From positions 1,813,356 to 1,861,207 of the forward strand of contig ML992503.1 in the NCBI GenBank assembly GCA_010093995.1: a DNA stretch of 47,852 nt, written 5' to 3'. How positions within the stretch are numbered: the first letter of the stretch is position 1; every line of letters begins with the position of its first letter. The DNA is from Elsinoe ampelina (Eukaryota). A program made the position numbers and the translations under genes. The notes under the pieces are model-generated. The model saw only the letters and a list, made by a program, of their open reading frames with translations, made no database searches and had not been told where the DNA came from. Positions 2,792-41,000 of this stretch are shown here, piece after piece.

Positions 2792-3254
2792 TGTTATAAA
2801 CTGTCTAAATATAGTCTATACTAGTAGTCTAAGCTAAGCTAAGAACGAGGTAGTTCTACTTCTATAGTAGTATAGTACTAAGGTAAGAGTTAGAGAAGGT
2901 ATATCTTATAGATAATAAAGTACAATTAGATAGTATTATAAAGGCTAGCCTTAGTAATACTAGTGTTTACTATCTAGATAAGATTAACTATAGTACTTAT
3001 ATAAGGTAAGGACTATTCCTATATATATATATTCTATATTATATACTCTATATACTTCGTATACTCCGTAGTAAGAGTCGAGAGCAATATAAAGTATATA
3101 TCTACTAGTAACCTATACGCTCTATAGTCTCTAGAGTAGAGCTACTAGAGAAGATAGAGAACTAGGTAAATATCGAGCTAAGTTATATAATAACCTTAGT
3201 AGTTTAATAAGTTCTAACGTCTCTATACTCTAGCTGTCCTACTAGTTTATAATA
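2792..3254 (-). repeat. 3' LTR of element A
   Basis: Colinear with 9332-9794 at offset 6540; the visible differences are transitions. Confidence 0.95.
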
Positions 3255-3328
3255 TTACTTTTCTCCTTTAATCGAGTTATTCTAATAAGTAAGTATTCTT
3301 TCTTATTTTTATATACTATGTACTAAAT

Positions 3329-3880
3329 ATGCCTCCTAGTTATTAAAGGCATAGTAAATCTAGTATATCTATACGAAAGAATCTCTTAGAGTTTATTAAA
3401 TTATTTAGAACTAATATGCTATAAGCTTACTCTTATTATAAGTCGAAAGAGCTAGACTATAAAGTCTATATTCGGTTAGGTATTTATAGCTAGTATATTA
3501 TAAGTAACTATCCGAGTTATAACATTTAAGTAATAAAATTAAAATAGTAACATCTCTAGTCTAAGTATATTCGTTTACGAAAGGAATTAGTTATAGCTAA
3601 GACTACTAGAATAGAAGCTAAAGAAGCTTATAAAAAGGTAAAAGAGGCTCGTTAAAGAGCTATAGGTAATAAGCTTTACCTATGTAAAGAGATATAGAAA
3701 TTAAAGAATAAAGTAGAGAAAGTAATCTCCTTAGAGAAAACCTATATTTAAGTTCTAGAGTAAGAGAAAATACTATCGTTAGTAAATCCTGTCCTACTAT
3801 AGAATTAGTAATTATTTATACCTAACTCTAATTAGAGTTCCTTATTTAGTAATAATTAGAGTACTTCTATTAGCTAAGTA
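3329..3880 (+). pseudogene. Antisense ORF of element A: Zn(II)2Cys6-like cluster followed by a coiled coil (RIP-degraded; 3' end approximate)
   Basis: ATG at 3329. TAC/TAT codons at 3428, 3437, 3458, 3485, 3494 and 3518 give C-x2-C-x6-C-x8-C-x2-C-x7-C if read as RIPped TGY. An E/K/R/A-rich helical segment follows (RLRKEL...EAKEA...KEAR). Confidence 0.7.
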
Positions 3881-6800
3881 GTCTTTCTTAGGCATTCTTG
3901 TTTTTGTTTAGTGTTAGTAGCGTCGGGCCTGCCTAGTTAGTTTACTTAGGATAGGTTTTCGGTCTAGTAATCTAGAATTACTTATAAGGTAAAGTGTTCC
4001 TTTAGTTCCTATATTACCTTACTATACTAATGTCCTTTCTAGTAGATAAGATAGTAACGCTTTCCCCTTATAGATTTATAACATAAAACTCTTTTAATCT
4101 TATACTATAGCTTCTATGTCTCTTTATCTAGTTTAATAGGTCTAGGTACTACGTCTTATAGTGCTTTTTCTAATAGTAATATATAAAAGACTAGGTAGAT
4201 CCTTATATATCTAGGTAGTTCTAGTTTATATACGTTTTTATTTTTCTTTTCTAGGATCTTAAAGGGTTCTAGTTTAGTATAGTTAAGCTTCTTACTTAGT
4301 TATTTCGTTTTAATGTTTTTACTAAGGAGGTAAACTTTCTCTCTCTCCTATAGAATTAGTCCTATAATTCTCTTCTAGTTAGTAAACTCTACTATTCTTT
4401 ATAATATAAATACTATATCTTAGTATAGCTAGTTATATAACTTCTTAATGTTAGCTACTAGTATATTTATATTCTTAGATATTAGCTTAATTCTAAGTAT
4501 ATTATAGTATAGATCTAGGTGTATTCTATAGTTTATATAGAATAGTAAAACTCTATTTACTAACTTTCTATTATTAATAGCAAGCTCCGTAAGTAGTAAT
4601 AGTATTACCTATAAGTCTTACTTATAGTTTAGGTAGTAGCGTAGGTACTACTCTAGTACTTAATTTGCCTATTTAGTTTATCTATCTATTTATAAGTAAA
4701 AGAAGGTTAATAGCTTATATTTAACTCCTAGTAGATCTATAAATAATTACTAGAATTATAATATAAATAGCTTATCTCTATTAGTTATTAGGTCTTATAG
4801 TACTCCGTGCTATAAAATAATTATATAGAGAAAGGTAAAGGCTATATTCTCGATAGTTACTATTATCTTATATAGTATAAAGTAGTAATACTTCGTAAAT
4901 CTATCTACTAGAACTAGAATACTATTGTACTTTACACCTATAAGAAGCTCTTCTAATAGTAGTAGAGGTCCTATAAAGTCTATTATAACTAATTACTATA
5001 GTTTATCTAGTAGTAGTAAGAGTTATAGTAAGCTATATAGCTTATATCGTAAGTACTTAGACTTATAGCATATATTATATATAGTAATATATGTCTTAAT
5101 ATCGTTTTAGAGTTCTTTCTATAGATAGTTCTATATAATAAGTTTAATAGTCTTATTAATTCTACTATGTTCTACTATTAGGTTATTATAGTATATTTAA
5201 ATAACTTTCTATTTTTGTTCTCTTATAAGCTTCTAGGTAAGGCTATATAACTACTCTACCTTTAGGTGCTTATAGACTAGAGTACTATCTTACTACTTTA
5301 GTATAGAGGCCTCTATTATTGTTATATTTTTTAAGTAATCTAGCTAGCGGCTAAGAGCGTCTACTTCGCCGTTTTCTAATTCCTTAATATAATAGATCTA
5401 GAAGTTATAGCTTATAAGTGTCTCTAACTATTATACTTATTATCTATTAAGAACCTTAGTAGTTGTCTAATATAGAAGGTTCTTATAGTTAGTATAGACT
5501 TATATAGGTAAGGTTATTTCTTCTAGGTATACTCTCTACTTATAGAATACTTTTATAATTATAAGTAGTTCCTTGTTATATATGTCGTAGTTAAGTTTAG
5601 GTCTAGTTATTTTTCATAAGTAGTATATAATTAAGTAGTATTATTCTTCCGCGTCTTTCTATACTAGATATACTTCTATTATAAAGTCTAATATATTTGT
5701 TTCTAGTAGTACTTATCGGTCTAGGTTAAAGAGTACTAGGATAGGTACTATCGTAAGCTTAAGCTTTAGCTCCTTAAAGGCCTACTTATATCTTTTATTA
5801 AAGATAAAGCTAGTTTTCTTTTTCGTAAGGTTAGATATTAGCGTAGCTATCTTAGAGAATCCTTTAATAAACTTATAGTAGTAGTTAAAGAATTCTAGTA
5901 GTACTTAAACCTCCTTAACTATTATAAGTTCTAGCTAGTTATTTACTAACTTAATCTTCTTTAGATTAGGTCCGATACTATTAGTAGATATAATATAGCT
6001 TAGAAATTGTATCTTATATTTATAAAACTTATACTTAGAGAGCTTTACTAGTAGGTCTTTTTCTTTTAGTTTCTATAGCACCTTATAAATATGTCTTATA
6101 TGTTTATTATATATCTTTAAGAAGATAATAATATTATCTAAATATACTAAGACAAAGTTATTAAGGTATTCTTATAGAGTATTATTAATTAACTCTTAGA
6201 AGGTTATAGGAGCGTTAGTTAATCTAAAGGGTATAACGAGGTACTTATATAGACTCTATTACGTTCTAAAAGCTATTTTCTACTCTTTACTCTCCTCTAT
6301 TTATACTTAATAATAGACATCTCTAATATTAATTATAGTAAACTATTTAGCTCTAAGTAGTTAGTCTTAAAGTTTATTAATCCTTAGTAGAGAATAGTAA
6401 TTCTTCCTAGTAAGTATATATATTTATAATATTCTATTCTTTTTAGGTATAAAAAGCACTCTATATATAATAGGTAATTTTAATAGTTGTATAAATCCTT
6501 TAAGTAGGTACTTATTAATATAGTTCTTAAGAACGTTCTTCTCTTATCTCGATAGTAGTATAAGACCTTAATAGTATATTAGGGATTTACTCTCTTTAAA
6601 GGGTATTTCGTAATTCTATAGTTTATATTAGAGTAAGGCTACAATGCCTTTTCTTTCTTTAAATAAGTCCTTAAAGTCTTTATATTCTAGCGGAAGTACT
6701 TAATTACTTACGCTAGTAATAGCTCTAACTATTAGTTATACCTATACTGTTCTTATAGTTAGTATCTATAGAGCTAATTATACTTCCTACATTCTATAAT

Positions 6801-9331
6801 TACACTTAGAGAATTCGAGTGTTTCTTTAATCTAGTCTATGTCTAGATTGTGTTATTAAAGCTAGTCTATACTAAGTACTATATTATACTATATATCTAC
6901 TATATCGATTAATTGTTTTTCTATATATGTTTTAATTTTAATTATAACATTTCGTAGTTCCTAAGTAACTTTCCTATTCTTCCCTATAGAGGTTCTATCT
7001 ACTATAGTAAGTAGGTAAGGTAACTTCTTCTAATATTAATAAGGTTTAAGCTAGTTAGTAACTATTATAGAAACGTAGCTATAGTTAGCTTCTAAATCTA
7101 TTATTGCTCTTACCTTATTCCTTTGTATTTTAACTTCTAGTATAAAGTAGTTTAATATATAGATCTTTATTATGTTAAGGCTTTAGCTAGTGTTATTGTC
7201 TTACCTTATTAGGCAATAACTAGCTAGTTTTTTGTTATTATAGCTCCTTAGATACGTAGCTAATCCTCTCCCGCACGTATCTACTATTAGTACTATACCT
7301 ATTAGGCTAGTTATATCTTGTTACTATTTAATATAGTAAGGTAGACTTCTAGCGCTTAAGTTCCTTAATAACTATAAAGTCTAATAATTCTCTACTAATT
7401 ACACCGAGTAGTATTATACACCTATATTAGTATAACTATTCTCTCTAGATAGAGCTATATATTAGTGTCGAAGATAAATACGAGTTAAGTAGATTTATCT
7501 TATTGTGTCCTACTCTAGTAGTAGGTGTATATTATTATATAATTTCTCTATATTTCTATAAGGTATATCTTAAGTCGTCTACCTAGTAGTAGTACGTTGT
7601 TATTATTGTTATTATTAAATAAATTCTTATTTATATTATTATATCGTAGTTATTTAGTGTATTCTTTATTGTATTTCTCTTTATTACTACTGTCTCTAGT
7701 ATAGTTATAATTAGTAAGGCTACACTAAGTATATTTCCTTACTTAGCTATAGGGGATAGTACTATCTATTTTAATTACTAAGAAGTCTATAGTATATTTA
7801 AGACTAATAGCGTCTTCTTTAAGTATATTATATAAGTAGGTAGTATAGTACTATTTACAATTTAGATTTATATATTTCTAGAGTAATATATAATATACCT
7901 TTTCTTATAGTTTACTATAAGAGCTAAAGGTAAGGCTACTATATTATTACATGGCACTTATATCCTAGTACTTCGTTTCGATAATTATATATTAGTAATT
8001 GTCGCTAACTACCTTCTAAGGTTAGTTAATGCCGCTACTAATTATAAGGAGCCTCTCTAAGTTAAGCCCCTAGTCTAGCTATTTCGTTAGTTACCTACGC
8101 TTAGATAGCTTATATAGGAACTAACTAGATCTCTACTTATCTAATAAGTAAATATAATAAGAGTTATTATAATATACTATTTATAATAGCGTTACGTAAT
8201 AGCTTTATTATTTATTATTAGTTATAGAGATATTAAGTGTAATATCTAGAGAGAGTTCTATTATCTCTCGAGTTATTATAGACTTCTTCTATGTTTCTCT
8301 ATCTATACTAAAGGTCGTTAGGTCTTCTATAGTAGTGTTAGTCTTTTTTTCTACTAGCCTAGCAACTATTATATATAATCTATTAGCTAGCGCCTCTTAT
8401 TAGTAGTCTCTAGCTCGATGTCTAGGTCTTTTATATTTAAAATATAAATTGTCTTATTTATACTTCTCTCTCTCTTTTTCGCTAAGGAACTTTCCTCTAT
8501 AGCTACGACCTTATACCTATAAGAGGCAACTCTCGCGTATAGTGTTAAGTTCTATAGAGTCTCTATAACTCTAGGAGAAATATATATATCTAGTGTTTAC
8601 CTTATATCCTCTATAACGTTCTATATGTCGTTTATAGAGTTAGTTATTAATAGCAATTATAGTGTCTACTAGTTTCTAAAGGCTATTTAGCAGCTCGAGT
8701 ATTATTTAATCTTTAACTAAGTCGCTTAGCCCTTAATAGAATATAGAGTGTTTAGTACTATTATCCTAGTCTAGGTACATTACGAGTTACTAGAACTAGG
8801 AATAGTACTAGGCTATAGACCTATATTATTATAGTTATTAGATCTTTGTTATAGTAATATATTTCTTATTAGATATATTAAAGACTTACTTAATCTTTGC
8901 CTAAAAGATACTAAAGCTCTTAAAGATAGCCTTTATATCTAGGCTTAGTTATCTATCTAGGTAGCTACTTATATAAGGCTTAAACTACCTAAAGGTAGCG
9001 CCTTTAAGGTGTATCCTAGTATAGAGAATCTTTACTATATTATTAGTATACTTGTCTTTCTCTAGAGTAAAGAAGACTTTAAGCTAGATAAGAAAGCGCC
9101 TTAAGTAGGCGTAGTCTCTATAGAAGAGTTCTACCTCTAGCTTAGGTCTACTCTGTCCTTTCCCTATACTAAGAGACCTTCTATATTTGCTTAAGGTTAA
9201 ACTAGTAGTTAATATATTATTAATAGTAAGCTTTCCTAGCTTACTAGCGATTAAAGATACTAATAGTAACTTAGAGCAAGAGTTACTTATTAACCTTATA
9301 GCGTGCTATACTATAGTAAGAGTAGTTAAAA

Positions 9332-9794
9332 TATTACGAACTGTCTAAATATAGTCTATACTAGTAGTCTAAGCTAAGCTAAGAACGAGGTAGTTCTACT
9401 TCTATAGTAGTATAGTACTAAGGTAAGAGTTAAAGAAGGTACACCTTATAGATAATAAAGTATAATTAGATAGTATTATAAAGGCTAGTCTTAGTAATAC
9501 TAGTGTTCGCTATCTAGACAAGATTAACTATAGTACTTATATAAGGTAAGGACTATTCCTATATATATATATTCTATATTATATACTCTATATACTCTAT
9601 ATACTCTATAGTAAGAGTTAGAGGCAATATAGAGTATACGTTCGCTAGTAACCTATATACTCTATAGTCTCCGAAGTAGAGCTACTAGAGAAGATAGAGA
9701 ACTAGGTAAATATTAGACTAGGTTACGTAATAACCTTAGTAGTTTAATTAGTTCTAATGTCTCTATACTCTAGCTATTCTACTAGTTTATAACA
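9332..9794 (-). repeat. 5' LTR of element A
   Basis: Direct repeat of 2792-3254, followed by TSD TTTAG. Confidence 0.95.
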
Positions 9795-10830
9795 TTTAGA
9801 TCTACTTATAAAGTAATTAGCTAAGTATATAGCTAATTTTATCTATGTTATAAACGTTATAAGGCTTAATATTATAGACTTTAAATATGTAAGATATAAG
9901 GTTAAACTATACTTTAATTTTTATAGTATTACTAAGCTCTTCTAACCTATTACTATCTATAGCTAGTTATCGACGGAGATTAATCTCTAGATAGTGTCCT
10001 TTAAAGTACTTATACTAGCACTATCTAATAGGGGTAGGTTATATATACTAAGGTTAATTAGTTATAGTTTCTAGAAGGTAGCTAGTATAGAGATTAAGCT
10101 ACTAGTTATTTAAATTAAAGCTATTATATAATAGAAAGTATATAAAGTTAACTAGAGTACTCTCTTAAGCACTTATTAGGCGCTACTAGATAGAATATAC
10201 TATTACCTATAGCTTATATATACTCTTAAGTTAATAATAGAGAGTTTATCTAGTAATAAAAGAAAAGTGTCTAGTAAGCTCTTTTTTCTTTAGCTTGCCT
10301 TTTAACTAATAATATTTATATATAGTAGCTTATAACTACTTTTTATATTTAATTAACTATAGTAGAACTATTAGATAAGGTAGTATTTAGAAGGAGAGTA
10401 AGATAGAAGAAAGAAGAAATTCTAGAGCACTAATTAAGCCTAGTATTAGTATAGATTTAAATATTCTTATTAGCTCTAGCTAGAGTTAACCCTAAAGTAG
10501 CTAGAACTATACTATAGCTAGAACTATATCTCTAATATTAGTAACTTAAAACAGCGTAGCTCTTAATAGATAAATAGCTATAGATCTATACTAATAAGAA
10601 TAAGCTAAAGATTAAAATAGATAGATAGATAAAAGGTTATATAAGATTATAGCCTCTAAGTTTTTAAATCTTTTTACGCTAAGCATAGCTAGGAAAGAAG
10701 TGCCTATAGAGCCTAGCTACTAGATGCTTAAGGGAATTATTATTTAGTAGTCTAATTTTTCTTATCTAGTAGCCTTACTAAGGTAGCTTTCTAGGTTTAG
10801 GTATGCTATCTAGAGTCTAAACTAGCGCTT

Positions 10831-10908
10831 CGAAAAGGTGTCTTAAAGGGCATAGAGAGCGCTATCTCGAGACGTATAAAGAGGTGTCTTAAAGAGCATA
10901 AAAAGCAC
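10831..10908. repeat. Left part of a 22-24-bp tandem array that was split by the hAT insertion
   Basis: Units such as AAAAGGTGTCTTAAAGGGCAT and AGAGAGCGCTATCTCGAGACGTAT; the array resumes at 18617. Confidence 0.8.
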
Positions 10909-13329
10909 TAGTGTAACTATTAGGGCAGAGTTAGCCCCTTTAGGTTTAGTACTATACTAGGGTTTAGGTCGGCCTCTAGCTAGCGTAGTGCTACTAAGGG
11001 CTTAGTAGCACTAGTACTAGCTCCGCACCGTAGCTATAATAGCACTATACTAGCACTAGATATAGGTTAGGTTATGTATATTCTAGACGTAGTATAGTAC
11101 TAGGTTAGGTTAGTAGATAAGTAGTATAGTGCTATTAAGTCCTTAGCGTACCCTTACTAGCACTACACTAGAGTTACTATTCTTATAGTAAATTCTTATA
11201 GTAACTACTATATCCTATAACTCTTGTTACTTTTCTACTCTAAACGCTTAAAGTTATAGTAGGTAAAGGATACTAGAGAGAAGTAAAAGTTATTAATTAT
11301 TAACTCTTATATATAATTACGACCTAATAGTAATTTATAGAAGATTAACCTAATTAATATTATCTATATAACCTTTATAAGCCTATTTTACATACTTAGC
11401 TAGTAAGCTATATACTACCTAGAACTAATACTTTATTATCTTATTATCTACTTTATCTAGAGAATATTCTATCCTTAGTAAGTTTACCCTTATATAAATT
11501 ATAACTCTTAACTAGTAAACTAGAGTACTAAAGCTATTAGGTAGAGTCTAAGACTAGAATAATTAGTTCTAGGTAGTTTAGCCTTCTTACTAACTTATAG
11601 TATAGTTACGGATTGCCTTAATGCTATTAGATTACTAGTTAATAGTAAGTGTAAGGCTGTCTAGAGCCTTAATCTCTACCTAAAGGTTATTAATAAATTT
11701 ATAGTAAGTAATATTAGCCTAACAAATAATAGAGAGGCGAGTAGTAGACATAGTAGTAGATTTGCTTAAATTCTAGTAACTATTAGTATAAGTTATACTA
11801 TAGTAACGTAAAGGTATACTAGATAGTTGTTTAAATGTTTCTAAGGAGAGAAAGAAGTAACTTAGCTAATAATCTACTTATATCCCTTAGTATAATAATA
11901 GCTATTGTTCGATAATAGCTATTGTTAGTATTGTTGTTTTTTTATAATAGATAATAGCTATTGTCTATATTATTGTTCTTATAATAGGTAATGCTAGATA
12001 TATATACCTTTTAGTTACTATTTCTCCTTCTTCCTCTTAAACCTCTCTTTCTTATCGTTTAATACTTCCTTCTATAATGTCTCCTTCTTACGCTTAACTC
12101 TACCTCGACCTAGTAGATCTAATTCCCTTTTAGCCTTATAAGATAACTCCTAGCGACTATGCTAGGCCCTTATACCTACGTTAGTGTAAAGCCTATATCT
12201 ACCGTATAACTCTTATATATCTCGACTTTAATAACAACTACGAAATCTAAGCTAAATATATCTATAATAACTATAGAGGTTTAGTACTTTACTATAAAGC
12301 CTACCGCACTTACGATACCTCTTATAACTTTATAGGTGTTTCTAATCTAATCTTTCTCTATAATCTAACAAATATTAGTATAATATCTTATAGACTAATA
12401 ACATCTTTAACCTAATTAACATATAGCGCGCTATTAATTGTCTTATTCTCGATAGAAGAGTAGATCTACTCTTGCTCTTTACTATATGCTATAATATTAA
12501 ACGTAAGTAGAAGGAGTTAAATTACATTAACGATAGTAACAATAGTGTTTCTTCCGATAACTAATCTAATTAAGGTAGCATAGTCGAAGCGTTAGCGGGC
12601 TAATAGCTTTAGATAGTTATTAATAATATAGACTTACACTTTATAAAGACTTAATTACGTTGCTTCTTCCTGTAAGTAACTAAAATTAACTATAATAATA
12701 GCATATATAAGCTCTTAAAGTAGAAGTATTTATATTACCTCCGGCTACACTAGTAGTTATATTACTACCCTAAGTAGCACTATCGGTACTAGTAGTAGAA
12801 GCACCTCCCTCGTTGTTCTCTTTACTATTAGTGTTATTCTAGAAAGTAACCTAACTATTATTAGGCTTAAACTTAGTAAGAAAGTCGAGAGTATAATAAG
12901 GTAGATATTAGTAATAGTATAGAGAGTAGCGTTAGTAATAAGTTAGCTAAGGTCGTAGGTGCCGTAGTAGAGGTAGTTATTAAGGTTAATAATAAGAGAA
13001 GTAGCGCGGAGATTAGTTATAGCTTTAGCCTTTATATTATAGTTAATCTATACGATTTTCTTATTAACGTTTTTATAAGTAAATCCGGCACGACTAACGT
13101 AGATATAAATATAGTTATATTAAAGATACTAGCGGGCAAGGAAACGAGCTTCCTTAGGGCAGCTAACGAAGGGAGACTATTAGCATTAGTAGGTGGAATT
13201 ATATATAGTAATAGGGAAGATATACGCGAAAGTACTTTAGAGTAGGTATTAGTATAGATACTATAAGAGCGTTATTACTCGGAGGCTATTAACTAGATAC
13301 ACTTAGAATACTAGCCTCTAACCTTAGTA

Positions 13330-15850
13330 ACGTTATATAGTAGATCTTTGTCCTTATTATGCCCTTCTTCCTTATTAACCTCTTTGTTACTTAAACTATA
13401 GGTAGTAATATCTCTAAAGTTATTACTTATACTATCTATTCCGCTATTAGTATTATTATTAGCAGTAGTAAAATTATTTATCTTAGCCGATTAGATGTTT
13501 TAAAGATTGTTTTCTACTAGCTTAGAGACTATAATTTATTAGATTGTCTATAGAAGTAGTCTATGTCTTTAATTACTAATAATATTCTTTACTATATTAA
13601 AAATATATTTAATACCTACGCTAGTAATTAGTATTATAAGAACATTACGAGTAACATAAGCTAGTTATAGAAATAAGTACTTATTTTCTTTCTATTAAGA
13701 AAGAATATTAAATTCTAATATTTCTTATATAGGCGAAGTTCTAAGGTAATTCTTCCCTTCTATTCTTATTATATAGATGTCGCTCTACTCTTACGAAAGT
13801 ATATTATCTTAGCTAGATACTAGAGGTATAAAGCTACTCTCTATGTTTAATAAGGAAGGCTTCTTAAACTAGTAAGTAATAGACGAGGCTAGTAGAGGAG
13901 ATAGAAGAGTAGTTTAAAGAGAGTAGTTATTATTATAGTAATCGAGGTAGTCGAGGAACTATTTATAGTAAAGCAATTTAAAATATAGTTTCTACGAAGT
14001 ATACTTATATACACTAAGTTTCTAAGTTAGATTTAAGATTATACTACAATTAAATAGGAAACCTTAACCTTTACTTATTTACTTATAATACTTAGAAAGC
14101 TTAGTATAACTAGCTTTTACTACATTTTACATAACTAATAGCTAGTCTAAGTTGTTGTTCTTTTCCTAAGTAGACTTAACTACGTTAAGAAAGTCAAAAA
14201 GAGTATTATATATAAGCTATATATATTGTACTAATAGCGTATAAGACTAACTTAGCTAGTTAGTTACATTCTTAAAATTCTCTAGTATTTGAATAATAAT
14301 CTTTAGATATGCCTATTTAGCGTAGCTAAGGTAAAGGCATTTTATGTCTATATAATTAATAGATGCTATATCTTAATTAGCTAGCGCTTTATTAGTTTAG
14401 GGCTTATATACAATTATAATCTCCGCGTTAAGCTATTTATTAATAATTAGTTAAAGTTTAATAGCTTACTTATATATATTATATATTAAGTTCTAATAGG
14501 TATAAACGTCCTAAACAACTAAAAGTTATTTATAAGGAGGTAGATATACTTAAAGGGATTTAAAGTGTTAGTAGCGTTAAGGGGATTAGTTAATTATAAT
14601 ATAAATTATATAGAGCTTTAAAATTAGTTAAAAAACTATAAGAAAGAACTATAAGAAATATAACTTACTTTATAGAGAGAATTTAAAACTAATAGAGTTA
14701 TTTAAATATTATAGAGATACTACTTCTCGAGCTTATTAGCTTTCTTATTGTCCTCGGTAGTTTCTAGCTATAGGGCTTAAATAATATCTTATATAACAAG
14801 ATTAATTATATAGGCTAGATATAGAATTATATTCTCGATAGAGGACTAGTATATACTCTTCTTCTTAAGACCTTATTATACTTTAGATCGTAGAGTATTA
14901 TTGTTACTTATATTATTCGCTATAATAGTAAGAAGGTATATATTAATCTTTTTTTTTATTTAGAACTCTTAGTAGTTCCGTGCCGAGCGTAACTCTAGTA
15001 TACTATCTACTAATTAGTATAAAATCTAGTAGGTACTTACGTACTTACTAGTTGTTATTAATATAGTATATCTTTATAGCTACAAAACTTAGATAGTTAT
15101 TCGTAGACTAGCTATCTAGTATAATTGAAACTTTTGTCTAACTACTAAGATTAGTAAGAAGATTAGACTAAATGTCCTTATAGTGCTCTTTTAATAGCCT
15201 TAAGGCCTGTATCTAACCTAGAATATTAGTATATAGTTAGAGGAAATATATAAATTAGAGAAAGAAGAAATTATTAACTATTTAAAATAACTAATTACAA
15301 TTAATAAGGACCTTAATAAGCTCTTTTTTAAATTGTTCTAGGGAGAATTATAGTATATAGAATATAGTGCTAGTAGCGTTTACTTTTAATTACGTTAGAG
15401 CTATCTAAGCTACTAATTATTTATAGCTAGAAGATTTTATATTCTAGTAGCTTTAGTATCTAAGATGTTTTATTAGGTGTTTATTACTAATTAAGTTTAT
15501 TATTAAGTATTATAAAGCTCTACTATAGTAGAGATAATATATAAGAGGTATTCTATTAGTAAGCTTAGTACCTTTATTAAAGTTGGCCTAAATAACTCTA
15601 TAGCGGGTTATAGAATTCTAGTTTAGTAGGTTTCGTGTTCCGCTAACTCTTAATTTGCTACCTATTAATATTATAGGCTACTATATTTTCTAGGCTTATA
15701 TAGCTAGCTATTCTTCGAGTAGCATATCTAGTTAGTAGAGTAGACAGCTAACAATTTTAATAGTTTTATAGAATTAAGTAGAGAATAGATTGTTCTAGCA
15801 ATTAATATAGAACTCTTTAAGCTCATAGAGGAGAGATAGTAGTAGCATAA
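13330..15850 (-). pseudogene. hAT transposase (BED-type Zn finger, DDE core, hATC dimerisation domain); ends approximate
   Basis: De-RIPped motifs: CLHC...HLMKHL (~15460-15545), KVSITLDGWST (~15102-15135), LLTITADNASNN (~14897-14934), IPCLAHVINLVVQDII (~14780-14830), ILSWWKENE.SFPQLARVARDVLAIPITSVGVERVF (~13598-13710). Confidence 0.92.
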
Positions 15851-16100
15851 CAACTTCTAAGAGTATTCATAGTTAAGAATCAACTAAGTCTTTATTAAAT
15901 ACTAACATTTTAAGAGTAGAGATATAGAATATTACTAGCTATATAACAAGGAGTAGAAGACTATAAGAATACTCTATAAGAATCTATTAGCTACTCTTAA
16001 TTTATAGATTAAAAAATTTTTAATAGTATAGAACTAGAAAGCTACTAAAACTATAGTTTAATTTTCCTAACTTAAGGTTAATCTATTTATTCTTATCTAT

Positions 16101-16340
16101 NNNNNNNNNNNNNNNNNNNNNNNNNNNNNNNNNNNNNNNNNNNNNNNNNNNNNNNNNNNNNNNNNNNNNNNNNNNNNNNNNNNNNNNNNNNNNNNNNNNN
16201 NNNNNNNNNNNNNNNNNNNNNNNNNNNNNNNNNNNNNNNNNNNNNNNNNNNNNNNNNNNNNNNNNNNNNNNNNNNNNNNNNNNNNNNNNNNNNNNNNNNN
16301 NNNNNNNNNNNNNNNNNNNNNNNNNNNNNNNNNNNNNNNN
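16101..16340. other. Assembly gap (240 N)
   Basis: Run of N. Confidence 1.
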
Positions 16341-17588
16341 TACTTAGAGTTTAGTAGGTGTTATATTCTTAATAAACTTCTTAAACTTAGCTTAGTTACT
16401 ATTGTTATAGTTACTAGTATTATATAGTAAGTTAACGCTATTATAGTAGATCTTATAGGTCTATTTCTTAAGAATTCTACTAGTGCCGAGAAGATGTTTT
16501 ACTTAGCAATTTAGGAATATATTTATCTTGTTATAGAGCGCCTTCTTTATATAATTAGCAAGGAGTTACTTATAGTAAAGAAGAGTATTAGCTTTATAAA
16601 TACTACTCTATTTTTAGTAGATAGATATAAACTTATTCTTTAACTATTCCCTTATATAGAATTAGTAGATATACTATAAGAATGTACTATAAGAAACATA
16701 CTACTCTACTAGGTATAATAGTAAGTCTCTGCTATCTTCTTATATACTATATCGAAGGTAGCTTCTTTCTCCTTATTAGATATTACTTAGAATTTCTTAG
16801 AGTTCTTAAGTTTTATCTTAAGTATACGTTTTATAGAGTAATTAGTATTACTAGTAGTAGTAAGAGCTTTCTCCTCTATACTAGCTTATATAGCATAATC
16901 TCTTTACTAAATAGCTCGCTAGGTATTACTAAGCTATACTTTCTACTATAGAATTCTAAGGGGGTAGCTATAGTAAGGAGTTCTAGTATTCTAAGAGCGA
17001 TTTTTAATCTAGTATTTAATCTTATTAGCCTCGGAATTAAAACTCTATAGTCTAGTTAGTATTTAACTATAAGAAGTATCTATAAGAATTACTCCTATTA
17101 TAGCGAGGATTACTTTCTCTTCCTTAGTTATTTCTTTAGTCTTAATTACTAGAGCATTAGTTATCTTTTTCTCTTTACTAAAGGTTTACTAATCTATAGG
17201 ATTAGTAGACATTATAGATCGAGAATTAGTAGTAATTTATAAGAGAAGGTAGAATATTAAGTATAATAGGGAGCGAGATATAAGATATAAGTTTTATAAG
17301 AAGAAGATAAGAAGAGAAGGATTTAGTATTCCTTATATATATAGTAAATAGAGTAGCTAGAAATATAAGTAATAATAGGTATTAATTCTATTGTTATACT
17401 AATATAAAGTTGTTAATATTGTTAATATAAAGTCGTTATAGTAGAGAATAATAATACAAAATTTATATTCTATATACTATTATAAATTCCTTAATAAGGC
17501 TTAATATCTCGCTCTTAGTATTTTTGCCTTACTCTTCTTTACCTTTATAAATAAATTTTAATAATTAATTTAATAAATTTATATAGCT

Positions 17589-18170
17589 ATAGCTCGTAAG
17601 AAGTAAGTAACACCTCTAAAAAGAGTAAAGCTAAGAAAGTAAAGCGCTAAGAAAACCGCTACTAAAAAGCCTACTATAGATAGTTACGTAATAAAATTTA
17701 AACTAGTATTAACTAGACAAATTTGCTAGGCGAAGAGCTATAGGTTTAAGCTAGGTAGTTAGTTTCTTATAGTAAATTCTTATAGTCTTATATCTAATAT
17801 AGTATAGCTATTACTCTCCGAGAGATTTATTACTACTAGAAGATAACTAAACTTCTTATATATAAGCTTCTCTTCTTCTTTATTATTTATAACATTACGT
17901 AAGATATTAAGTTAACACTTATAAGTAGAGATTTACGCTTTATGCTAGATGCTATTAAGTGTCTCTAGAAAGTAAGTAAGGTAATACTAGTAGAATATTT
18001 TAAAAGTATATTAACTATATATTTAGAATATATAATACCTTATACTAATAACTATAGTAGACTATAATCTTAACGCTATCTATACTAAGTGTTGTACTAT
18101 TATATAGAAAGACTCTTAGCTTACTAGAAAATATTATAATAAGTACTACCTACTTACTTTCTCTAATTAG
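17589..18170 (+). pseudogene. Histone H3-like gene carried inside the hAT element, RIP-inactivated; introns 17758-17807 and 18006-18060
   Basis: De-RIPped: MARKKQ...PRKQ...HRFKPGT/VALREIxxYQKTTELLIxKLxF...QDIKSTLxSxDLRFMxDAIECLQEASEAMLVEYFE/DCNLNAIHAKxxTIMQKDSQLAR. Both introns have a GT donor, a CTAAT branch and a TAG acceptor, and restore the H3 frame. Confidence 0.92.
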
Positions 18171-18616
18171 TAAGATCTCTTCTCTATAATGCTATAAGAA
18201 TAGACTATAAGAAATAGACAGGTGTATTTTTATATAGACTAGACTATTAAATTTCCTTTTTATAGACTTATTATAATGCTAAAGTATAGTATAGTAACTA
18301 TAGTTGCCTTAAAGCCTAACTAAGCTATAGTACTATAACATAGTATAATACTAGGATTTAACCCTAGTACTAATTTAGTATAGTACTATTATAGTGTAGT
18401 ATAGCGCTATTATAGTATAGTGCTATTCTTGCTTAACTACAGTGCGGTGCTAGTGCTAGTGTAGCTCGGCGTAGTGCTAGTGCTAGTGCTAATATAGTAG
18501 AGTATAGAGCTAGTGCTATTTAGTTTAGTACCGGGTGCTAACCTGCTAAGAATAGCTCTATACTAGCACCGGGGTTGGCCTTCGGCCGCCCTAACCCCGC
18601 CCTAACAGTCACACTA

Positions 18617-18708
18617 AAAAGCACTATCTTAAAGGGCATAAAAAGCGCTATCTTAAAGAGTATAAAAAGCGCTGTCTCGAAGGGCATAAAAAGCACTATC
18701 TCGAAGGA
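18617..18708. repeat. Right part of the 24-bp tandem array (about 4 units, AAAAAGCGCTATCTYRAAGGGCAT)
   Basis: Units are directly visible after the hAT right TIR, the first overlapping the TSD. Confidence 0.85.
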
Positions 18709-20550
18709 CAAGAAAGCTAGGTATATTAGCTTATAACTAGACCTTGACTATATTCTAGAGTTGAAAAGGGATGCGAAGCGGGCGTCTCCATAGGCTAGAG
18801 ACTAAAAAGGACTAACACGGCCACCGGATAAGAAAAATCGGGCCACCGAATAACAATTCCCGATGCTCGACGTCGCGTATACCCGGGGAGGGGCGGCGAC
18901 CGGCATTGTGCATGGGTGGAAGATCCACTGATGCGGTCCCCAAGATGAGGGATTTTCTTCTTGAAGAGACGAGATGCTCTGTCCAAGGTTCAGCTTCACT
19001 GTATGTGAGCAAGGGGAGCGTGAATAAGTGGAGCATGAACATGTGGAGGCGGGTGATGCGGCTCGACGTGAGTGCACCATTCAAGCAGGTCCACAGGTTC
19101 ACGAGGCAAGAAACAAAGAGACGGGCACTTCGCTCGGGTAGACAGAAAGGGGAAAGCAAAGCTAAAATGCAAACGTGGCGAAAACTATGCTTGACGAATG
19201 ACATTCTGCAAAGGTGCATCATGCCGCGTTCAGGGAGTGATCGACCAAAGGGGGGCAGCCTCAGCTCACCGCGAGGCTAGCGAATCAATATCGATGAGCG
19301 TGAGCGGTGATACCGCCGCAACGTGACAGTGCGCAAAACCTCTGATGGACAGCGGTGAATAGACCGATGGGTAATAATGTAGAATTTGGTTGTCTCACAG
19401 CATCGCCAGCGCATGTTGTAGGACTCGGCCAGGAATATGACGCACCGGTGTTTTGTTCCTGCCGCATCGGGACGGCATGAGGCATGTCGATCTCGGATCG
19501 CGGCAGAGAAAACAAAATTCTAATTTCCACACCAAGCATCATTCAGTTGCTCAGGTGAACTTTTAACCTTGAATGCTCGCGCAATCGCCAAAGAAGTTTT
19601 CCCGAACGCAAAAAAGGCAATGGTAGAGCATATTGGAACCGGCGGTGGACCGTCTGAGGGACAAACATGGGTAGTAGGCCGTGACATGACTCTCTGCCAA
19701 ACGAGCAGGCTACTGGTAAAAAGCATCGGAAATAACAGACTAGTGGCACCATGTCATGCTCGTGGACGCAGCAGATCTTGCGATATTGTCGTGTATCCCA
19801 CAGTCGAACATGTTCTCTAGCTGCCTGATGGGAAACATTATCATGTACTACCGCCCGCCGTTCGGATTGACTACCGCTCCAAAATAATCAGGATCTCAAT
19901 CAGATCGGGTCGCCACGACGTCGGAACAAGGCCTGTGCGGAGGAAAAAAGGTGTTGCGGCCGGCTCCCCGTGTGTTCCCATCGTCGATTGAACAGCTTAG
20001 CGTCGTTTGGCTTCACAGCGACTCGCTCATTCCATCGATCTTCTCCCATCTCCACACTGGTCTCACTGGCACGACTGGATCCATCGAAGGCCCGCTGGTG
20101 TCCACTCACACATCCTGCCGCATTCTGCCCATGACCGGTTTCTTGTCTCCCCTGTCACATTCACCAATTCGCCACATCTCCGGGCGAGCCACATGAACTG
20201 CCCACCCAGGTGCCCATTTTTTTTTTCTCCCACGCTGCTAGCCCGTCGAGCTTATTAGAGGTGCTGCATCGCGGACCAATTCTGCCCCTTCACCGTTCAG
20301 TCCAACAAAGAATCGCAACTTCATTGACCCAAAGTATTCACACAAAAGACACAACTTCTGTCCACGCCCGCGCCTCGCGCCACCCAGCTTTGCATCTCGC
20401 GTGCAATGACCCCGCTCCTCCCGCAACTAGCTCCGATCCAACTGAAACTCTGATCGCAAAGCACAAGCAAACTCGCAACGCCAGCCGGCAGGGCAGCTCA
20501 GCGTCGAACAGGCCGAACCCAAGCAGCAGCCTCATTGTTCCGCCTTCGTC

Positions 20551-21300
20551 ATGCCACGCAGGTCCGCTCAGAATCTCTCTCCACAATCCCTCCACCACCA
20601 TCAGCACCAATATACGTCCCTACACCAGCAACCTCAAGCCATTCACGACTTTACCTCGTCCATTGACACATCCATCCTCGGCTACCCGACAACCACGAGC
20701 TTCGACCTCGTCCTCCCGCAGCCCGGCGTCAAACAGCCGATTATGATGACCGACTCGGTCCACTCCAAATACGGCCAGATCACACCTCCTGAAGACCACT
20801 GGAAGCAGCCTTGGGAAGCCATCAACCCATCAATGAACCCAGAACAGTTTATGACCGGTCGCGACCGCAGTCAGAGCCGAGACTCGTCGTCAAGCCTTCC
20901 CGCCACCTCGTCAGGCAGGGTTGACAAGAAGGACAAATACCGAGAGAAGAATCGTGTCGCGGCGGCAAAGTGTAGGGCAAAGAAGAAAGAGCACGTCGAC
21001 GGCCTGGAGGAGAACCACCGGACACAGAGCATGCTCAATGCTCTGCTCAAGCAGACCGAGCAGAACCTGCGGGACGAGCTGTCCTTCTGGCGGACGCAGG
21101 CGCTACAACACGCCTTCTGCGACTGCTCAGCCGTGCAGGACTACAACCTCAAAAAGGCTCGCGCCCTCGCCGCTGACAAGAACTTTGGCGACCAAGATGG
21201 TCTTCGTCGAGATTCGATGAACCAGTCGCCGTCGTCCAAGGTGGGCGCCATGTCCTTCTACCCACAACCGCATCCAGAGTTTGACGCCCAAGCCCCGTGA
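20551..21300 (+). CDS. bZIP transcription factor, ATF/CREB (Atf21/AtfB-like) type, 249 aa, intronless
   Basis: Basic region KYREKNRVAAAKCRAKKK; zipper LEENHRTQSMLNALLKQTEQNLRDEL; downstream HAFCDC motif typical of fungal Atf-like bZIPs; ITPPED motif upstream. Confidence 0.9.
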   Translation: MPRRSAQNLSPQSLHHHQHQYTSLHQQPQAIHDFTSSIDTSILGYPTTTSFDLVLPQPGVKQPIMMTDSVHSKYGQITPPEDHWKQPWEAINPSMNPEQFMTGRDRSQSRDSSSSLPATSSGRVDKKDKYREKNRVAAAKCRAKKKEHVDGLEENHRTQSMLNALLKQTEQNLRDELSFWRTQALQHAFCDCSAVQDYNLKKARALAADKNFGDQDGLRRDSMNQSPSSKVGAMSFYPQPHPEFDAQAP

Positions 21301-21799
21301 CGGCCGCCACATCACCTCCACGACAGTACCTGCTCCAGACAGACCCCCTCTTCGCATGGTTCGATGATTGATTCATCGTTCGCATACACGGCGCAATCTG
21401 CTTCTTGATTTTAAATCCGGACAAACTCCAACCCGGCTGCGACCCTCTTGTTAGCCACCTGGACAGGTTCCTTTTATGCAAAGTCTTACCTCGCCACCAT
21501 CAACCATCTCGCACCGCACCGATCTCTCCGTCTATCCAGCTCGACCATGCTGGAAATTTTTACTATCATCGTCGACTGTAATAACGAATATTTGTTTATC
21601 CTCTCCTAGTTTCTCCGGAGGTTCCGCAGCGGAATGTCGGATCCATGCGACTGATGCAAGCAATAGCGGGCGGCGTTGGTTGGCTTTTGTTTTTTCTCTC
21701 GTTTTGATAACGGCCGAAGACTCTTATGGCGAGGCGACGATGAACCTCGGGTCGGTGACAAAATCCCAAAAAGCCTATGAAGGAGGAGGCGTCAAATGA

Positions 21800-21813
21800 G
21801 TGTGTGTGTGTGT
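21800..21813. repeat. (GT)7 microsatellite
   Basis: GTGTGTGTGTGTGT. Confidence 0.8.
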
Positions 21814-23349
21814 CGTGTCGCTTCTCTTTGCTGTTCCCATGGTCATGGCAAAAGGTGTTACCGAAGGCAACATGTATATAAGATACCCAAGGATCGTATC
21901 CGCAGGGAGAACCTAGCAAAGCAACGAGTAATAGAATCGAAGCGCACGAGATCCTTTGACCTGCTTGATGAGATTGACAGAAGTGAACGCTCAACTTACT
22001 GGTAGTGACCACTCACCTTGCCCTGCCGTCACGCAAATTTTCCCATGCCAGTGGTATTCCAGTCGACGGCAAGGAACATCAATCCAACAACTCTGCCGTC
22101 CGGCATGTATCGATGTCGTCTCCCATCGTCAGACCACCCGTCCGAACCACCCTGTTCGCACAACCACGGCTCCCCGTCCGCGGCAGGAAAGCCAGTTATG
22201 TTCAACCCTGCTTCTCGAACCCGTTCGTGACCAGTGGGAGAAATCCAACACAGACGACCTCCGTCTCGCGATGATAACATCTCCACCAAACCAAATGGGA
22301 ATAAAAACAACCTCCTCATGTACGATGCGAAAACCCGAACGATACCAAGTTGGGCCCCGAGGATTATATACGCAAACCTCCTTGGATTTCTCTGCCTGCT
22401 CCTGGGCAGCCCGCCGCGGACGCACGAATGAGAAGACGCAGATTTGAGTGGGAAGACAAGCGAGCCAATAGGGTGCCGGAATCATGATTCGCGCTTCTTA
22501 GGGCTGTGAAGTTTTGGCGTTGGATCGAGATGTCGGGCGAGGAGGCCGGCTCCGGGAGAGAGAGGGGCGGCTCTGCGATGAGGCTCTGGGCCGAAGAGTG
22601 CCCGAGGGATCTCATCGCGGGAAGGGGGGAGGCTGAAGCCGCTGAACTTTGGACGGAGGTTGGTCCGAACGGGTGTTCGCATTTCGCATTCTTCTGGTGG
22701 AGGGGGGGATCTTGCATGGCTTTTTGATTAGGGCGGGTGGCTGCAGTGGGCAGGTGTTCGTGGCGGTACCTGAGATGGGGAGGGTGCTGGTGAGGGCATG
22801 TTGGCGTCACGATGAGGGAACAGTGGATGGTAGGGTTTGGGTTTCGATTTCAAGATCTTTGGTTGAGCTCGCACTTCTCTTACCACGATACGTTTTGTTC
22901 TCCTGCATTGAAGAAGTAGAGACGTCGCTCGATCAGTCGCTCCGTCTCTGATTTCTGGCAATCCAAGTCCTTTCTTCACCGGGCGTAGGACGTAGCCTTC
23001 CAGATTGCCTACTTTCATGGATCCTCTACGGGCTAATTTTGAACTAGCTGAACACCCCCAAACTACACGTTGCCAGCGAAATTCGAAATAGCACGATCCG
23101 TCAATCACCAAACCCGAATCCTGCCCAGGTCATTGGAGCCACCACCATCGAACCTGTCACAGATATATCATGGAACATGCTGTGCCGCACACATACACCT
23201 CAGCTAGGTGCTGGGGGATCGCGGACTTCACTTTCTGGAATGGATTGGCTCCAATAGAGGTCCGATGTTAATACGTTGTCATGATCTGCTTCGTCAACGG
23301 TACTGGAGCACCATGCCTTCTATGCCTTGTGTTTCCCATTCTTGCTTGA

Positions 23350-23355
23350 TATAAG
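23350..23355 (+). promoter_or_regulatory. Possible TATA box of the 23525 gene
   Basis: TATAAG about 170 bp upstream of an ATG in a good CACCATG context. Confidence 0.4.
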
Positions 23356-23524
23356 CTACAAGGTGAGCCTCCTCGAGAGGACGATATCATACAACAGTTC
23401 TTTTTACTTCGATCAAGTCATATTTTGTACTAGACACTGATCAGTCTACGGCTGAACACATTCCCCTTCGCTCCAGATCACACACCCAGCTGCTGTCAGC
23501 TTTTGCTTAGCTGCTCTAGTCACC

Positions 23525-38000: not shown

Positions 38001-41000
38001 TATTAAAGCCTTATATTAAAGCTATATATATCGTAATATAGAGAATGCCTATCTAACCGAATAGTCTATTAGTAGTAGAACTAATTACTATTAAGCCCTA
38101 GGTATAAGCGCCGCGTAGGATATCTAGGTATATTACGTAAGCGGGACTAGCCGCTACTAAGTACTACTCTAATACTGTACTCTTATAATTGCCTTCTCCT
38201 CTAGGGGAGCTATCCTTAGCTCTATACTAGTATAGTAAATATATAATTTAAGGCGAAGGTAATATAGGCCTTAAGGCATTTTCGGTTATATATCGCATAT
38301 AAATCGTATACTACTTAGTTATTATAGTCCTAATAGTCTAGGTCGAAGGAGGCGTTTATTTAGTCGCTATAGTATTAAAGCCGATTAGTAGTAATAATAT
38401 TACTTTTCCTTAAAATTCCTAGTAGTACTAGGAGAGACGCGCGCTCTACGCTAGTAGCTATAATAAAGATATAGTATACTAGAGGTTAGAATATATAACC
38501 TCGCTATTGCCCCTTACTTTCTCCCCTCTATATACCTAAATATATTTTTATTTTCTTAGACTTCTACTTTAATATAGCGCTCCTCGCTTAACTCGTACTT
38601 ACTTTATAATATTCGCTTCTTCGCGTAATACGTATAGCTCTAGCTCTCGTTAGCCCCCTATAACTCTCTTAAGTATACCTTGTATAACTCTTACTAGCGT
38701 AGGTTCTACGCTAGCTTCCCTCTACTATAGGTATACTATAGGCGTTAATAAGGGTAAGTATAGTCTATTTAAATACGATTCGTAACTAACGCGTAGTAGG
38801 ATTTAACTATATTAGTAGGAATTTTAGTACCCTTACTAAGAAGAAGTATACTTACTATATTAAGGGTTACTATACCTACGAGCTACTTCTACCTTACCTA
38901 CGTAGTAACTATATAGCTACGTATAACATATTTAACTCGCTTATAGAGATCAATAATAACGATAATAATATACCTATAGACTATGTAACTCTTAATAAGA
39001 CTCTTAAGGACTTTAAGGATTTATTAAAGGTATACTATACTAATAAGAATAAGGTTACTAGCGAGGCGTCTATACCTCGTACTAGCCGCGTAGGTACTAT
39101 ATATAGCGCGCTTAACTAGGAGAAGGTAGTAGAGCTTTAGAAGATTAGGAGGACCTTAACTACCTTAGTAGTAGTTAGATAGGAGGTATATTAGCTACGT
39201 CGCTTATACGTCTATCTCGCGACTAATATACTTAGATAGTACATAATACTAGCGGGTTAACTAAGCACTCTAATAGGATTATAGCTAGAGGAGAGTTTTT
39301 TAAGGATAAGAATAAGATTAAGAAGAATAATAAGAATAGAGAGTAGTAGTAGTATTATATACGAGCTAGGTACGTATCTCTAGCGCTATGTCTATAAGGC
39401 CTTATATATAGTATAAAAGTTTATAGCGTTTAGGATAATACCTATATAGCTAGTATAAGCGTAGCGCTTTATTAAAATATATTACTCTAGATAAGAAGTC
39501 TATCCTTTAACTAATTTATGTACTTATATAATCTAACTACTTATATACTCTATAATCTACGCCTTCTATAACCCTTCTTAGGTACTTTTAGCTACGACTT
39601 ATATATAGTAATTAGCTCTCTTATATTTACGTAATTCTCCTTAGGTTCCTAGCTATTAAACTTAATAGGCTAGTCTTTCTACTTTACTAAGTAGAATACC
39701 TTACTCTTCGTAGCTCTTCTACCTAGGATCTTCTCTACTATCTACTTATCTACTTCATCTACGAGAGGTATACTTTCTTCTAGCTCTTTACTAGCTCTAC
39801 CTATTTATAGCTTAAGAAGAGATATATAAAAGACATTATAGATGTAATACTAACTCGGTAAGGCTAGGTAGTACGCCTACGATCCGATTATATTAAGTAT
39901 ACGAAATAGGCTAAGGAATTGTAGTCCTATCTTCTTCTTTAGTATAGGTAGCTATAAGTTCTTAGCTAAGAGTAGTACTAAGTTACCTACGCTATATACC
40001 TTTAGTATATACTTCTTATTATAGTACTTAGCCTAGTAGGTAGAAGCCTCTTTCTATTACTCTACTAGCTTTACGTATGTATCTTATAAGCGTTATACTA
40101 ACTCTAGTACTACTAGTACTCTTCCCTCTAAAGTCTCGTCCTAAGACTTAATAGCTATTACCTCTAACTCTAGGTAGTAGCTATACATTATCTAGAAGAG
40201 GCTTATACGTAGTATAGTATAAACGCTATTATTACTTATAAACTCCGCTTAAGATAGACATTCGGCCTAGTCGTTTTATAATTCTATATAATAGTACCTT
40301 AGGTACTATTCTAACGTCTAGTTCTATCGCTTAGTCTAACTGTCTATCTATAGGTAAAAGGCTATACTAAGCCTACGTTTTATATACGTTTCGTAATAGA
40401 ATTTACTCTAGAACTAGCTAGTAAAGACTAATCCTTAATTACTTACTATTCCCCTAGGAACACTATAGTAGTAAATTACGTAGTTACGTAGAATCTTTAT
40501 AAGCTCTATAGATGTACACTTCTTAGTAGTAGGAACGTATAGTAACATCTTAGTATATCGGTCTATAATTACTAGTACCGTATTATAGACGCTATTGCCT
40601 TACTTACTCGGTAGTAGGTTAGTAATAAAATCTATTATAATTTCTTACTATAGGTAATCTAGTATCGGTAGTATACGTAGCTCGCTATAGAGGTAGTAGT
40701 AGCGCGCCTTATACTTCTAGCAAACTTAGTATAACTATATATAGTTATTAATATCTTTTCTTATAGTTAGCTAGAAGTATTTCTATAATAGGAGCTTAAG
40801 CGTCTTGTCCTTACTAAAGTAACTAGCCTATTCGCCGTTATAGTATATACGTAGTACCTACGCCTTAAGTACGCTATTATTCGGAATAACTAGTAACTCT
40901 TTATAGAAGAGAAGATTATCTTATATATTCTATAGCGCTCTACTCTTATCTCTACTACTTCCCGCTTATAAACGTAGCTTTATAATCTTAGGGTCTTATC

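Follow-up and report, generated by a model that had tools for sequence, protein, structure and literature searches.

A dead antisense accessory gene with a former six-cysteine domain in a Ty3 chromovirus of Elsinoe ampelina

Antisense genes beside the 3' LTR and the relic in element A

An additional gene placed between pol and the 3' long terminal repeat (LTR), and read from the strand opposite to gag-pol, is a known feature of some LTR retrotransposons of fungi and plants. The fungal case closest to the one described here is brtn of the Boty-like Ty3 elements (Zhao et al. 2011, Virology 417:248, as recounted in the available portions of PMC7264820, PMC8365987 and PMC4227169); it has been reported in Botrytis and Sclerotinia (PMC7264820), and a Monilinia transcript is on record that matches both a truncated Pol and BRTN (PMC5987419). 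In plants, antisense open reading frames (aORFs) between pol and the 3' LTR have been listed for Grande (gene23), RIRE2, Retand and PvRetro13 (PMC7264820). We have analysed a 47,852-nucleotide stretch of the genome of Elsinoe ampelina (GenBank assembly GCA_010093995.1, contig ML992503.1, positions 1,813,356 to 1,861,207 of the forward strand; hereafter the window, whose own numbering is used throughout), which contains two Ty3 elements, A and D. Between the end of pol and the 3' LTR of element A, on the strand opposite to gag-pol, we find a gene, here called accA, which has been inactivated by repeat-induced point mutation (RIP) and which, judged by its homologues, was once a real gene and is now a dead remnant.

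Both brtn (Boty of Botrytis cinerea and Sclerotinia) and accA are extra genes antisense to gag-pol by the 3' LTR of a chromodomain Ty3 element, but the two are likened by layout only, and the available accounts of brtn mention no Cys6 or zinc domain. With the plant aORFs, one of which encodes a nuclear-localised protein, accA shares position, orientation and conservation across copies (PMC7264820); the plant genes, however, belong to non-chromovirus lineages and are described in the same account without clear similarity to other proteins, and here too the likeness is one of layout. The same applies to HBZ of human T-lymphotropic virus type 1 (HTLV-1), an antisense gene beside the 3' LTR, by which it is driven, that encodes a dimerising nuclear regulator: it specifies a basic leucine zipper (bZIP) protein of a vertebrate retrovirus with no homology to accA, and the analogy with retroviral antisense genes (HTLV) has already been drawn for aORFs (PMC7264820). 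An earlier note on the window, made from its sequence alone, had called such accessory genes of fungal Ty3 elements under-described, which is true in part. The layout had been in print, with brtn in 2011, the plant elements and the HBZ comparison, whereas the Cys6 architecture and its conservation are apparently undescribed in the literature searched, where we found no description of zinc-cluster or Cys-rich antisense open reading frames in fungal Ty3 elements beyond brtn and where a survey of fungal LTR elements (PMC3248453) has no occurrence of the word 'antisense'.

Elements A and D are two distinct, structurally complete Ty3 elements, both on the minus strand. Each exhibits the features that characterize Ty3/gypsy chromoviruses: two LTRs within a target-site duplication, a polypurine tract (PPT) beside the 3' LTR, and reverse transcriptase (RT), RNase H, integrase and chromodomain (in A a chromodomain-like end) in this order. 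Element A occupies positions 2792-9794 and is flanked by the target-site duplication TTTAG (2787-2791 and 9795-9799). Its 463-bp 3' LTR (2792-3254) begins with TGTTA, its end having been RIPped from ...TAACA, and differs from the 5' LTR (9332-9794) at 55 positions, 48 of which are transitions. The PPT (3255-3272, minus strand; reverse complement ..AAAGGAGAAAAG..) lies immediately inside the 3' LTR and is placed likewise in the intact relatives of the element. The gag-pol region (3900-9331, minus strand) carries RT, RNase H, integrase and a Tf2-type SH3 domain interrupted by many RIP stops; with the stops read as X, Pfam recovers RVT_1 (E 9e-14), RNase H and SH3_Tf2-1 in one minus frame. A chromodomain-like end is seen at about 3930-4100, with no Pfam Chromo match in this RIPped copy; the relatives described below, L001 and L002, do match Chromo (E 2e-15 and 3e-11, respectively). 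With pol ending near 3900, about 0.64 kb is left before the PPT and LTR.

This interval is the site of accA (3329-3790, plus strand), which reads MPPSY at its start and comprises 154 codons, 11 of them stops. Its homology-backed core spans 3353-3769, and its tail may extend to about 3890, where it would enter the antisense of the 3' end of pol. The RIPped translation has no Pfam match and no word-based homologue; a phmmer search against 1.84 billion representative sequences returned P0001 (199 aa, E 1e-8), P0002 (208 aa, E 8e-4) and nothing else. In both proteins a C-x2-C-x6-C-x8-C-x2-C-x7/8-C pattern is followed by a long charged helix. All six Cys columns of the alignment are Tyr in the window and Cys in every intact homologue, the corresponding codons 34, 37, 44, 53, 56 and 64 of the former six-Cys domain (3428-3520, plus strand) now being TAY, and a conserved His of the family is also Tyr in the window. 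The codon changes concerned, TGY to TAY and CAY to TAY, are precisely those made by RIP. No family Cys codon remains in the window, so the six cysteines of accA are inferred from RIP, and they are borne out by the homologues; with Tyr read for Cys, the spacing is C-x2-C-x6-C-x8-C-x2-C-x7-C.

A profile hidden Markov model (HMM) of four intact members, run against all six frames of the window, gave a single match, at 3353-3769 (E 2e-14, 42.5 bits), whose score rises to 64.1 bits once Y is read as C. In an alignment that permits any RIP reversal, with 26 tiles as controls, accA scored 252 against the full profile and 112.8 against the Cys domain, the control maxima being 117.3 and 54.3. Among 78,514 RIPped codons the Zn2Cys6 pattern written with [CY] at the Cys positions is found at 14 places, of which the 13 besides accA lie in Tyr-rich low-complexity runs. 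The antisense six-Cys helical gene that the earlier note had seen in element A, past the chromodomain and before the 3' LTR, is thus confirmed by the phmmer and profile matches, and also by the related loci described in the next section. The copy in the window is itself non-functional, having lost all six Cys codons and acquired 11 stops.

The intact relatives and their predicted protein

A metagenome scan with the alignment of P0001 and P0002 yielded 73 pattern matches and five confirmed loci, L001 to L005. Three of them carry intact accessory genes, of 199 aa (L001), 213 aa (L002) and 208 aa (L003), and the intact proteins accordingly range from 199 to 213 aa; an intron is needed in none of the intact copies. 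L004 and L005 are RIPped copies with the same Cys to Tyr changes as accA plus Gln or Trp codons turned into stops, and the differences between L004 and L003 amount to 62 transitions and a single transversion. At all four informative loci (L001, L002, L004 and L005; L003 has 1,092 bp, not enough to place pol, and was left out of this count) a chromodomain pol with the integrase-SH3-chromodomain order lies directly downstream on the opposite strand, convergent with the accessory gene. The element at L005, which lies within a 683-kb contig, is complete and has LTRs of 397 bp; host genes (WD40, dynamin) follow beyond the LTR in L002. The two genes overlap by 4 nt in L002 and by 185 nt in L001 (L001:3449-3633), where both strands are coding in an intact relative. 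In element A and in L001, L002, L004 and L005 the gene therefore has the position by which aORFs are recognized, on the opposite strand and between the pol stop and the PPT and 3' LTR in most copies.

The LTR edge (..GTAACA) precedes the ATG of the accessory gene by 43-104 nt in the relatives and by 74 nt in the window, with the PPT complement in between, and from this short distance the promoter of the gene would have to be situated in the 3' LTR or in the short spacer. As a separate observation, the LTRs contain GC-rich clusters with CGG/CCG triplets, 25-50 nt in from their end on the side of the antisense gene (L003:100-160, L004, L001:2890-2960 and L002:9810-9830), and L003 additionally has two CACGTG boxes.

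The five elements that carry the accessory gene at the same position are themselves divergent, with pol proteins 32-44% identical. Between the accessory genes of L003 and L002 the proportions of nonsynonymous and synonymous differences (pN and pS) are 0.14 and 0.73, with a ratio of the corresponding substitution rates (dN/dS) of 0.06, in which dS is saturated. When L001 is compared with L002, identity is 47% for the accessory protein and 44% for the integrase-chromodomain part, from which it follows that the gene has moved together with the element and is under the same degree of constraint as the integrase. The test for purifying selection, whose failure the earlier note had named as a refutation, thus favours a real gene, and position and orientation are the same at every informative locus. 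By these comparisons, which are of sequences throughout, the accessory gene is under purifying selection and belongs to the conserved equipment of one lineage of Ascomycota chromoviruses. In other database searches, a viral-contig scan with the A-family alignment found no relative, a word-based protein search with P0001 returned only P0001 itself, and the database clusters of P0001 and P0002 are both nameless singletons. The nearest Atlas clusters, candidate look-alikes, are 'hypothetical proteins' of Ascomycota with 140, 122 and 62 members, and they provide a lead towards a wide spread of the family.

The intact accessory protein has a basic N-terminus of the QKRKA type, a six-Cys domain, a helix of about 90 residues and a conserved acidic-aromatic tail (LALSPYTWS..DDFW). 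The six Cys are invariant in the four intact members, with the spacing C-x2-C-x6-C-x8-C-x2-C-x7/8-C. The consensus of the Zn2Cys6 family (PF00172), to which the transcription factors Gal4, Put3, Hap1 and Lac9 belong, is C-x2-C-x6-C-x5-12-C-x2-C-x6-8-C, and the spacing of all four intact members falls inside it; the cluster of that family holds two zinc ions and recognises DNA sites of the CGG type. Further likenesses to these factors are the basic residues after the second Cys, the helix directly after the Cys domain and the acidic tail.

In an AlphaFold2 model built with four sequences (mean predicted local distance difference test, pLDDT, of 68), residues 83-174 form a single helix with pLDDT above 90, and the termini are disordered. 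The Cys domain, at pLDDT 53-56, has a short helix at each of its two CxxC pairs; in the Zn2Cys6 fold two such helices each begin at a CxxC. All eight PDB rows returned by Foldseek are Zn2Cys6 proteins (PUT3, HAP1, LAC9, GAL4), but with E values of 2-8. A homodimer modelled with zinc obtained a score of 0.55, the best control reaching 0.00; at least 96% of contacts are common to its runs, and the partner has a pLDDT of at least 86. The mark used for homodimers is reached by 21 of 30 solved homo-pairs and by none of 23 solved single chains, counts that hold only roughly once zinc is included, and a pass by a eukaryotic protein may reflect memorisation by the predictor. The modelled contacts (residue 96 with 138, and 89 with 149) are those of an antiparallel coiled coil, in which each Cys domain would pack against the far end of the partner helix.

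Element D and the surroundings of the two elements

Element D (38001-44587, minus strand) has LTRs of about 187 bp at 38001-38187 (3') and 44401-44587 (5'), and its target-site duplications, GTGTA (37996-38000) and GTATA (44587-44591), are one transition apart. Its gag-pol (39451-44400, minus strand) contains RT, RNase H, integrase H2C2, SH3 and a chromodomain ending at about 39597; with stops read as X, Pfam recovers RVT_1 (E 9e-19), RNase H, Integrase_H2C2 and SH3_Tf2-1, and Chromo at E 4e-5 and 23.9 bits, slightly below the cutoff of 25.1. The pol of A and the pol of D are only 34-36% identical, and the description of the two elements in the earlier note, with dissimilar LTRs (463 versus 187 bp) and divergent pol, proved accurate; both have extra DNA between pol and the 3' LTR. 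In D, where pol ends near 39450, this extra DNA amounts to about 1.26 kb (38188-39450) and has the PPT (..GAGGAGAAGG.., minus strand) at its LTR end. Contig pieces aligned over 38001-39700 numbered 416 in run X1 and 644 in run X2, with differences that are mostly transitions. Many genomic copies thus carry the spacer, which therefore belongs to the makeup of a high-copy family and did not arrive by a chance insertion. Of the 420 variant places on D, 40 were inspected, none of them in the Tyr-rich codons discussed below, and two runs guessed to be RNA placed zero pieces on element D.

The claim that element D, too, carries a six-Cys helical antisense gene, and that the A and D families share one module, is not supported. 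The spacer has no similarity to the A gene by tblastn or by HMM, whether or not Y is read as C, and its RIP-tolerant scores (97.2 for the full profile and 39.8 for the Cys domain) lie within the control ranges of 82.9-117.3 and 37.1-54.3. There is no Pfam match in the three plus frames at E up to 1, no word-based homologue of the spacer and no usable Atlas match for its longest open stretch, and a viral-contig scan with the D integrase found no relative. By every test run, therefore, the D spacer is not homologous to the A gene at the level of sequence. As to coding, the only positive sign is a stop-free stretch of 109 codons (38790-39116, plus strand), the third longest among the 78,514 RIPped codons, which contains the Tyr-rich segment earlier read as Cys; its 'six Cys' are a selection among 13 Tyr. 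The lowest frame stop density in the spacer, 7.9%, is ordinary among the 26 control tiles. TGA cannot serve as a marker of native stops, TG being exhausted in all frames. Coding and non-coding tiles are not told apart by the stop density of their frames, and the RIP-invariant purine/pyrimidine codon periodicity was set aside since it failed to discriminate even when applied to the two pol genes.

The window as a whole is RIP-degraded fungal repeat DNA, with a G+C content of 19-38% except in a GC-rich island at about 19-25 kb. The RIP indices of both elements are extreme: the TpA/ApT index is 1.87 in element A, 2.22 in element D and 0.61 in the island, and the (CpA+TpG)/(ApC+GpT) index is 0.16, 0.08 and 1.26, respectively. 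Long open frames are almost all lost from the AT-rich parts. The longest stop-free stretches in the RIPped DNA have 121 codons (12880-13242, plus strand; no Pfam match) and 116 codons (44501-44848, minus strand), the latter covering the 5' LTR of element D and its flank. Un-RIPped host genes, such as those for an S26 signal peptidase (20-721, E 4e-22) and a bZIP transcription factor (20446-21300, E 2e-7), occupy GC-rich islands that separate the repeat blocks, the island at about 19-25 kb being made of ordinary genes including the latter. Runs of N mark assembly gaps at 16101-16340 and 25645-26149, and apparent open reading frames at 25596-26173 were rejected as artefacts of the second run.

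A third Ty3 element, very degraded, was noted at 32400-38000 (minus strand), with RT, RNase H and a Tf2-type SH3 in one minus frame and a chromodomain-like end near 33050; no A-type gene was detected in it by profile. Its upstream end abuts the 3' LTR of element D directly, and a 135-nt repeat at 27139-27273 reappears at 47718-47852, on the edge of the window; the two observations together suggest that D may be nested in this third element. Elsewhere, 43-nt inverted repeats (10732-10774 and 18819-18861), 77% complementary and 8 kb apart, are each adjoined by tandem units of about 24 nt (TAAAAAGCGCTATCTTAAAGGGCA-like; 10829-10918 and 18615-18706), an arrangement that looks like the two ends of a large RIPped DNA transposon, with terminal inverted repeats and repeats just inside them.

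Possible roles of the accessory protein

We are highly confident of the identity and the architecture of the accessory gene. The best explanation of the whole, which we consider plausible though somewhat short of probable, is that A is a RIP-dead Ascomycota chromovirus with an antisense, zinc-type accessory gene whose product regulated transcription from the LTR. In such a scheme an antisense promoter within the 3' LTR would drive the gene, whose product would enter the nucleus, bind zinc via the Cys6 domain and dimerise via the long helix. The dimer would act as an element-encoded DNA-binding regulator of LTR-driven transcription, either activating or repressing it; in other words, the protein would be a small Gal4-like factor carried by a transposon. 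Of the functions considered, that of an LTR-driven, nuclear, zinc-binding and dimeric regulator of the element is the most likely, and we regard it as possible but on balance doubtful.

A number of observations weigh against it. The Cys domain is modelled only with the low pLDDT given above, and a domain-only model (pLDDT 56) led to nothing meaningful. The PDB sequence-profile search was empty, its top row being a ribosomal L37 zinc ribbon at E 0.67, and the Pfam Zn_clus profile gives only weak and partial matches to three of the four members, all sub-threshold (best E 0.063, with 13.8 bits where the cutoff is 21). DUF3716 (PF12511), a Cys-rich fungal domain of about 60 aa that is likewise transposon-borne, comes closer: it also matches three of the four members, nearly over the full profile (positions 3/4-59 of 59 in P0002, with 17.2 bits, and in L003, with 15.1 bits), but again below threshold (best E 0.00097, with 15-17 bits where 22 are required), and the element that carries its REP9 genes is of a different transposon class. 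The sequence likeness suggests that the accessory family is a distant relative of DUF3716, and not a member of it. The antiparallel dimer would place the Cys domains at opposite ends, unlike the parallel dimers of the Gal4 type that read paired CGG half-sites. The family is also almost absent from protein databases, a wider spread being suggested by the Atlas look-alikes, and the copy in the window is dead, hence nothing works in this copy.

The unusual geometry of the dimer is also the point of departure for a different role, that of an integration or targeting cofactor, in which the antiparallel dimer, each of whose Cys domains is packed against the distal end of the other chain's helix, would link a pair of sites on DNA or chromatin, or else the chromodomain-integrase complex. 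The gene always sits beside the chromodomain-integrase end of pol, and even overlaps it at length in L001, in agreement with such a role; it rests, however, purely on a model, and the acidic-aromatic tail and the basic N-terminus would suit a regulator equally well, and we think it distinctly unlikely. Again, the protein might counter the host genome defence or act on host genes, by analogy with the DUF3716 proteins REP9-1 and REP9-2, which are encoded inside a class II transposon of Zymoseptoria and of which REP9-1 is reported to alter the asexual reproduction of the host (PMC8232023). The DUF3716 likeness of three members is what speaks for this, but it stays under the Pfam cutoff, and a host-directed function seems to us quite improbable. 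Least credible of all is the idea that the ORF is incidental, either because only the antisense RNA matters, through self-regulation by double-stranded or small interfering RNA, or because the gene was captured from the host or inserted as a nested fragment. Silencing can indeed be fed by antisense transcription of LTR elements (PMC7264820), yet purifying selection and six invariant Cys speak against an incidental ORF, and the occupation of one position in five divergent elements, with divergence in step with that of the integrase, excludes a one-off capture.

As to element D, its spacer could still encode an antisense six-Cys helical protein, unrelated to that of A or very divergent from it and possibly with introns, in which case the two families would have acquired the module independently. 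The length of the spacer between pol and the PPT, its presence in many genomic copies and the open stretch, in which 9 Tyr fall within about 30 residues, each a possible former Cys, all point in this direction, as do the additional ORFs reported in other Botrytis Gypsy classes (PMC8365987). On the other hand, the Pfam, word-based and Atlas searches gave no match and the profile scores are at or below those of controls; Tyr-rich runs are common in RIPped frames, the stop density of the frame is ordinary, and other parts of the RIPped DNA also contain runs of 106-121 codons free of stops. We regard this independent acquisition as unlikely.

The study of accA ties the old observation of brtn to a protein architecture, and it indicates that RIP-dead copies remain readable, the Tyr-for-Cys reading having been verified against intact relatives. 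Accessory genes of LTR retrotransposons are seldom annotated because repeat masking hides them, and a conserved, selected, probably dimeric and putatively zinc-binding antisense protein provides a testable candidate for self-regulation or target choice by a chromovirus. A broader picture, which in our judgement is unlikely, would be that this lineage encodes a Gal4-like zinc-cluster factor, expressed in antisense from the 3' LTR, that binds this LTR or, as an antiparallel dimer, connects two DNA sites and in this way controls transcription or integration of the element, that Cys6 (DUF3716-like) modules have been recruited repeatedly by fungal retrotransposons and DNA transposons, and that D is possibly a second, unrelated example. 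If it were true, the Cys6 modules in fungal transposons would constitute an unrecognised class of transposon-borne regulators.

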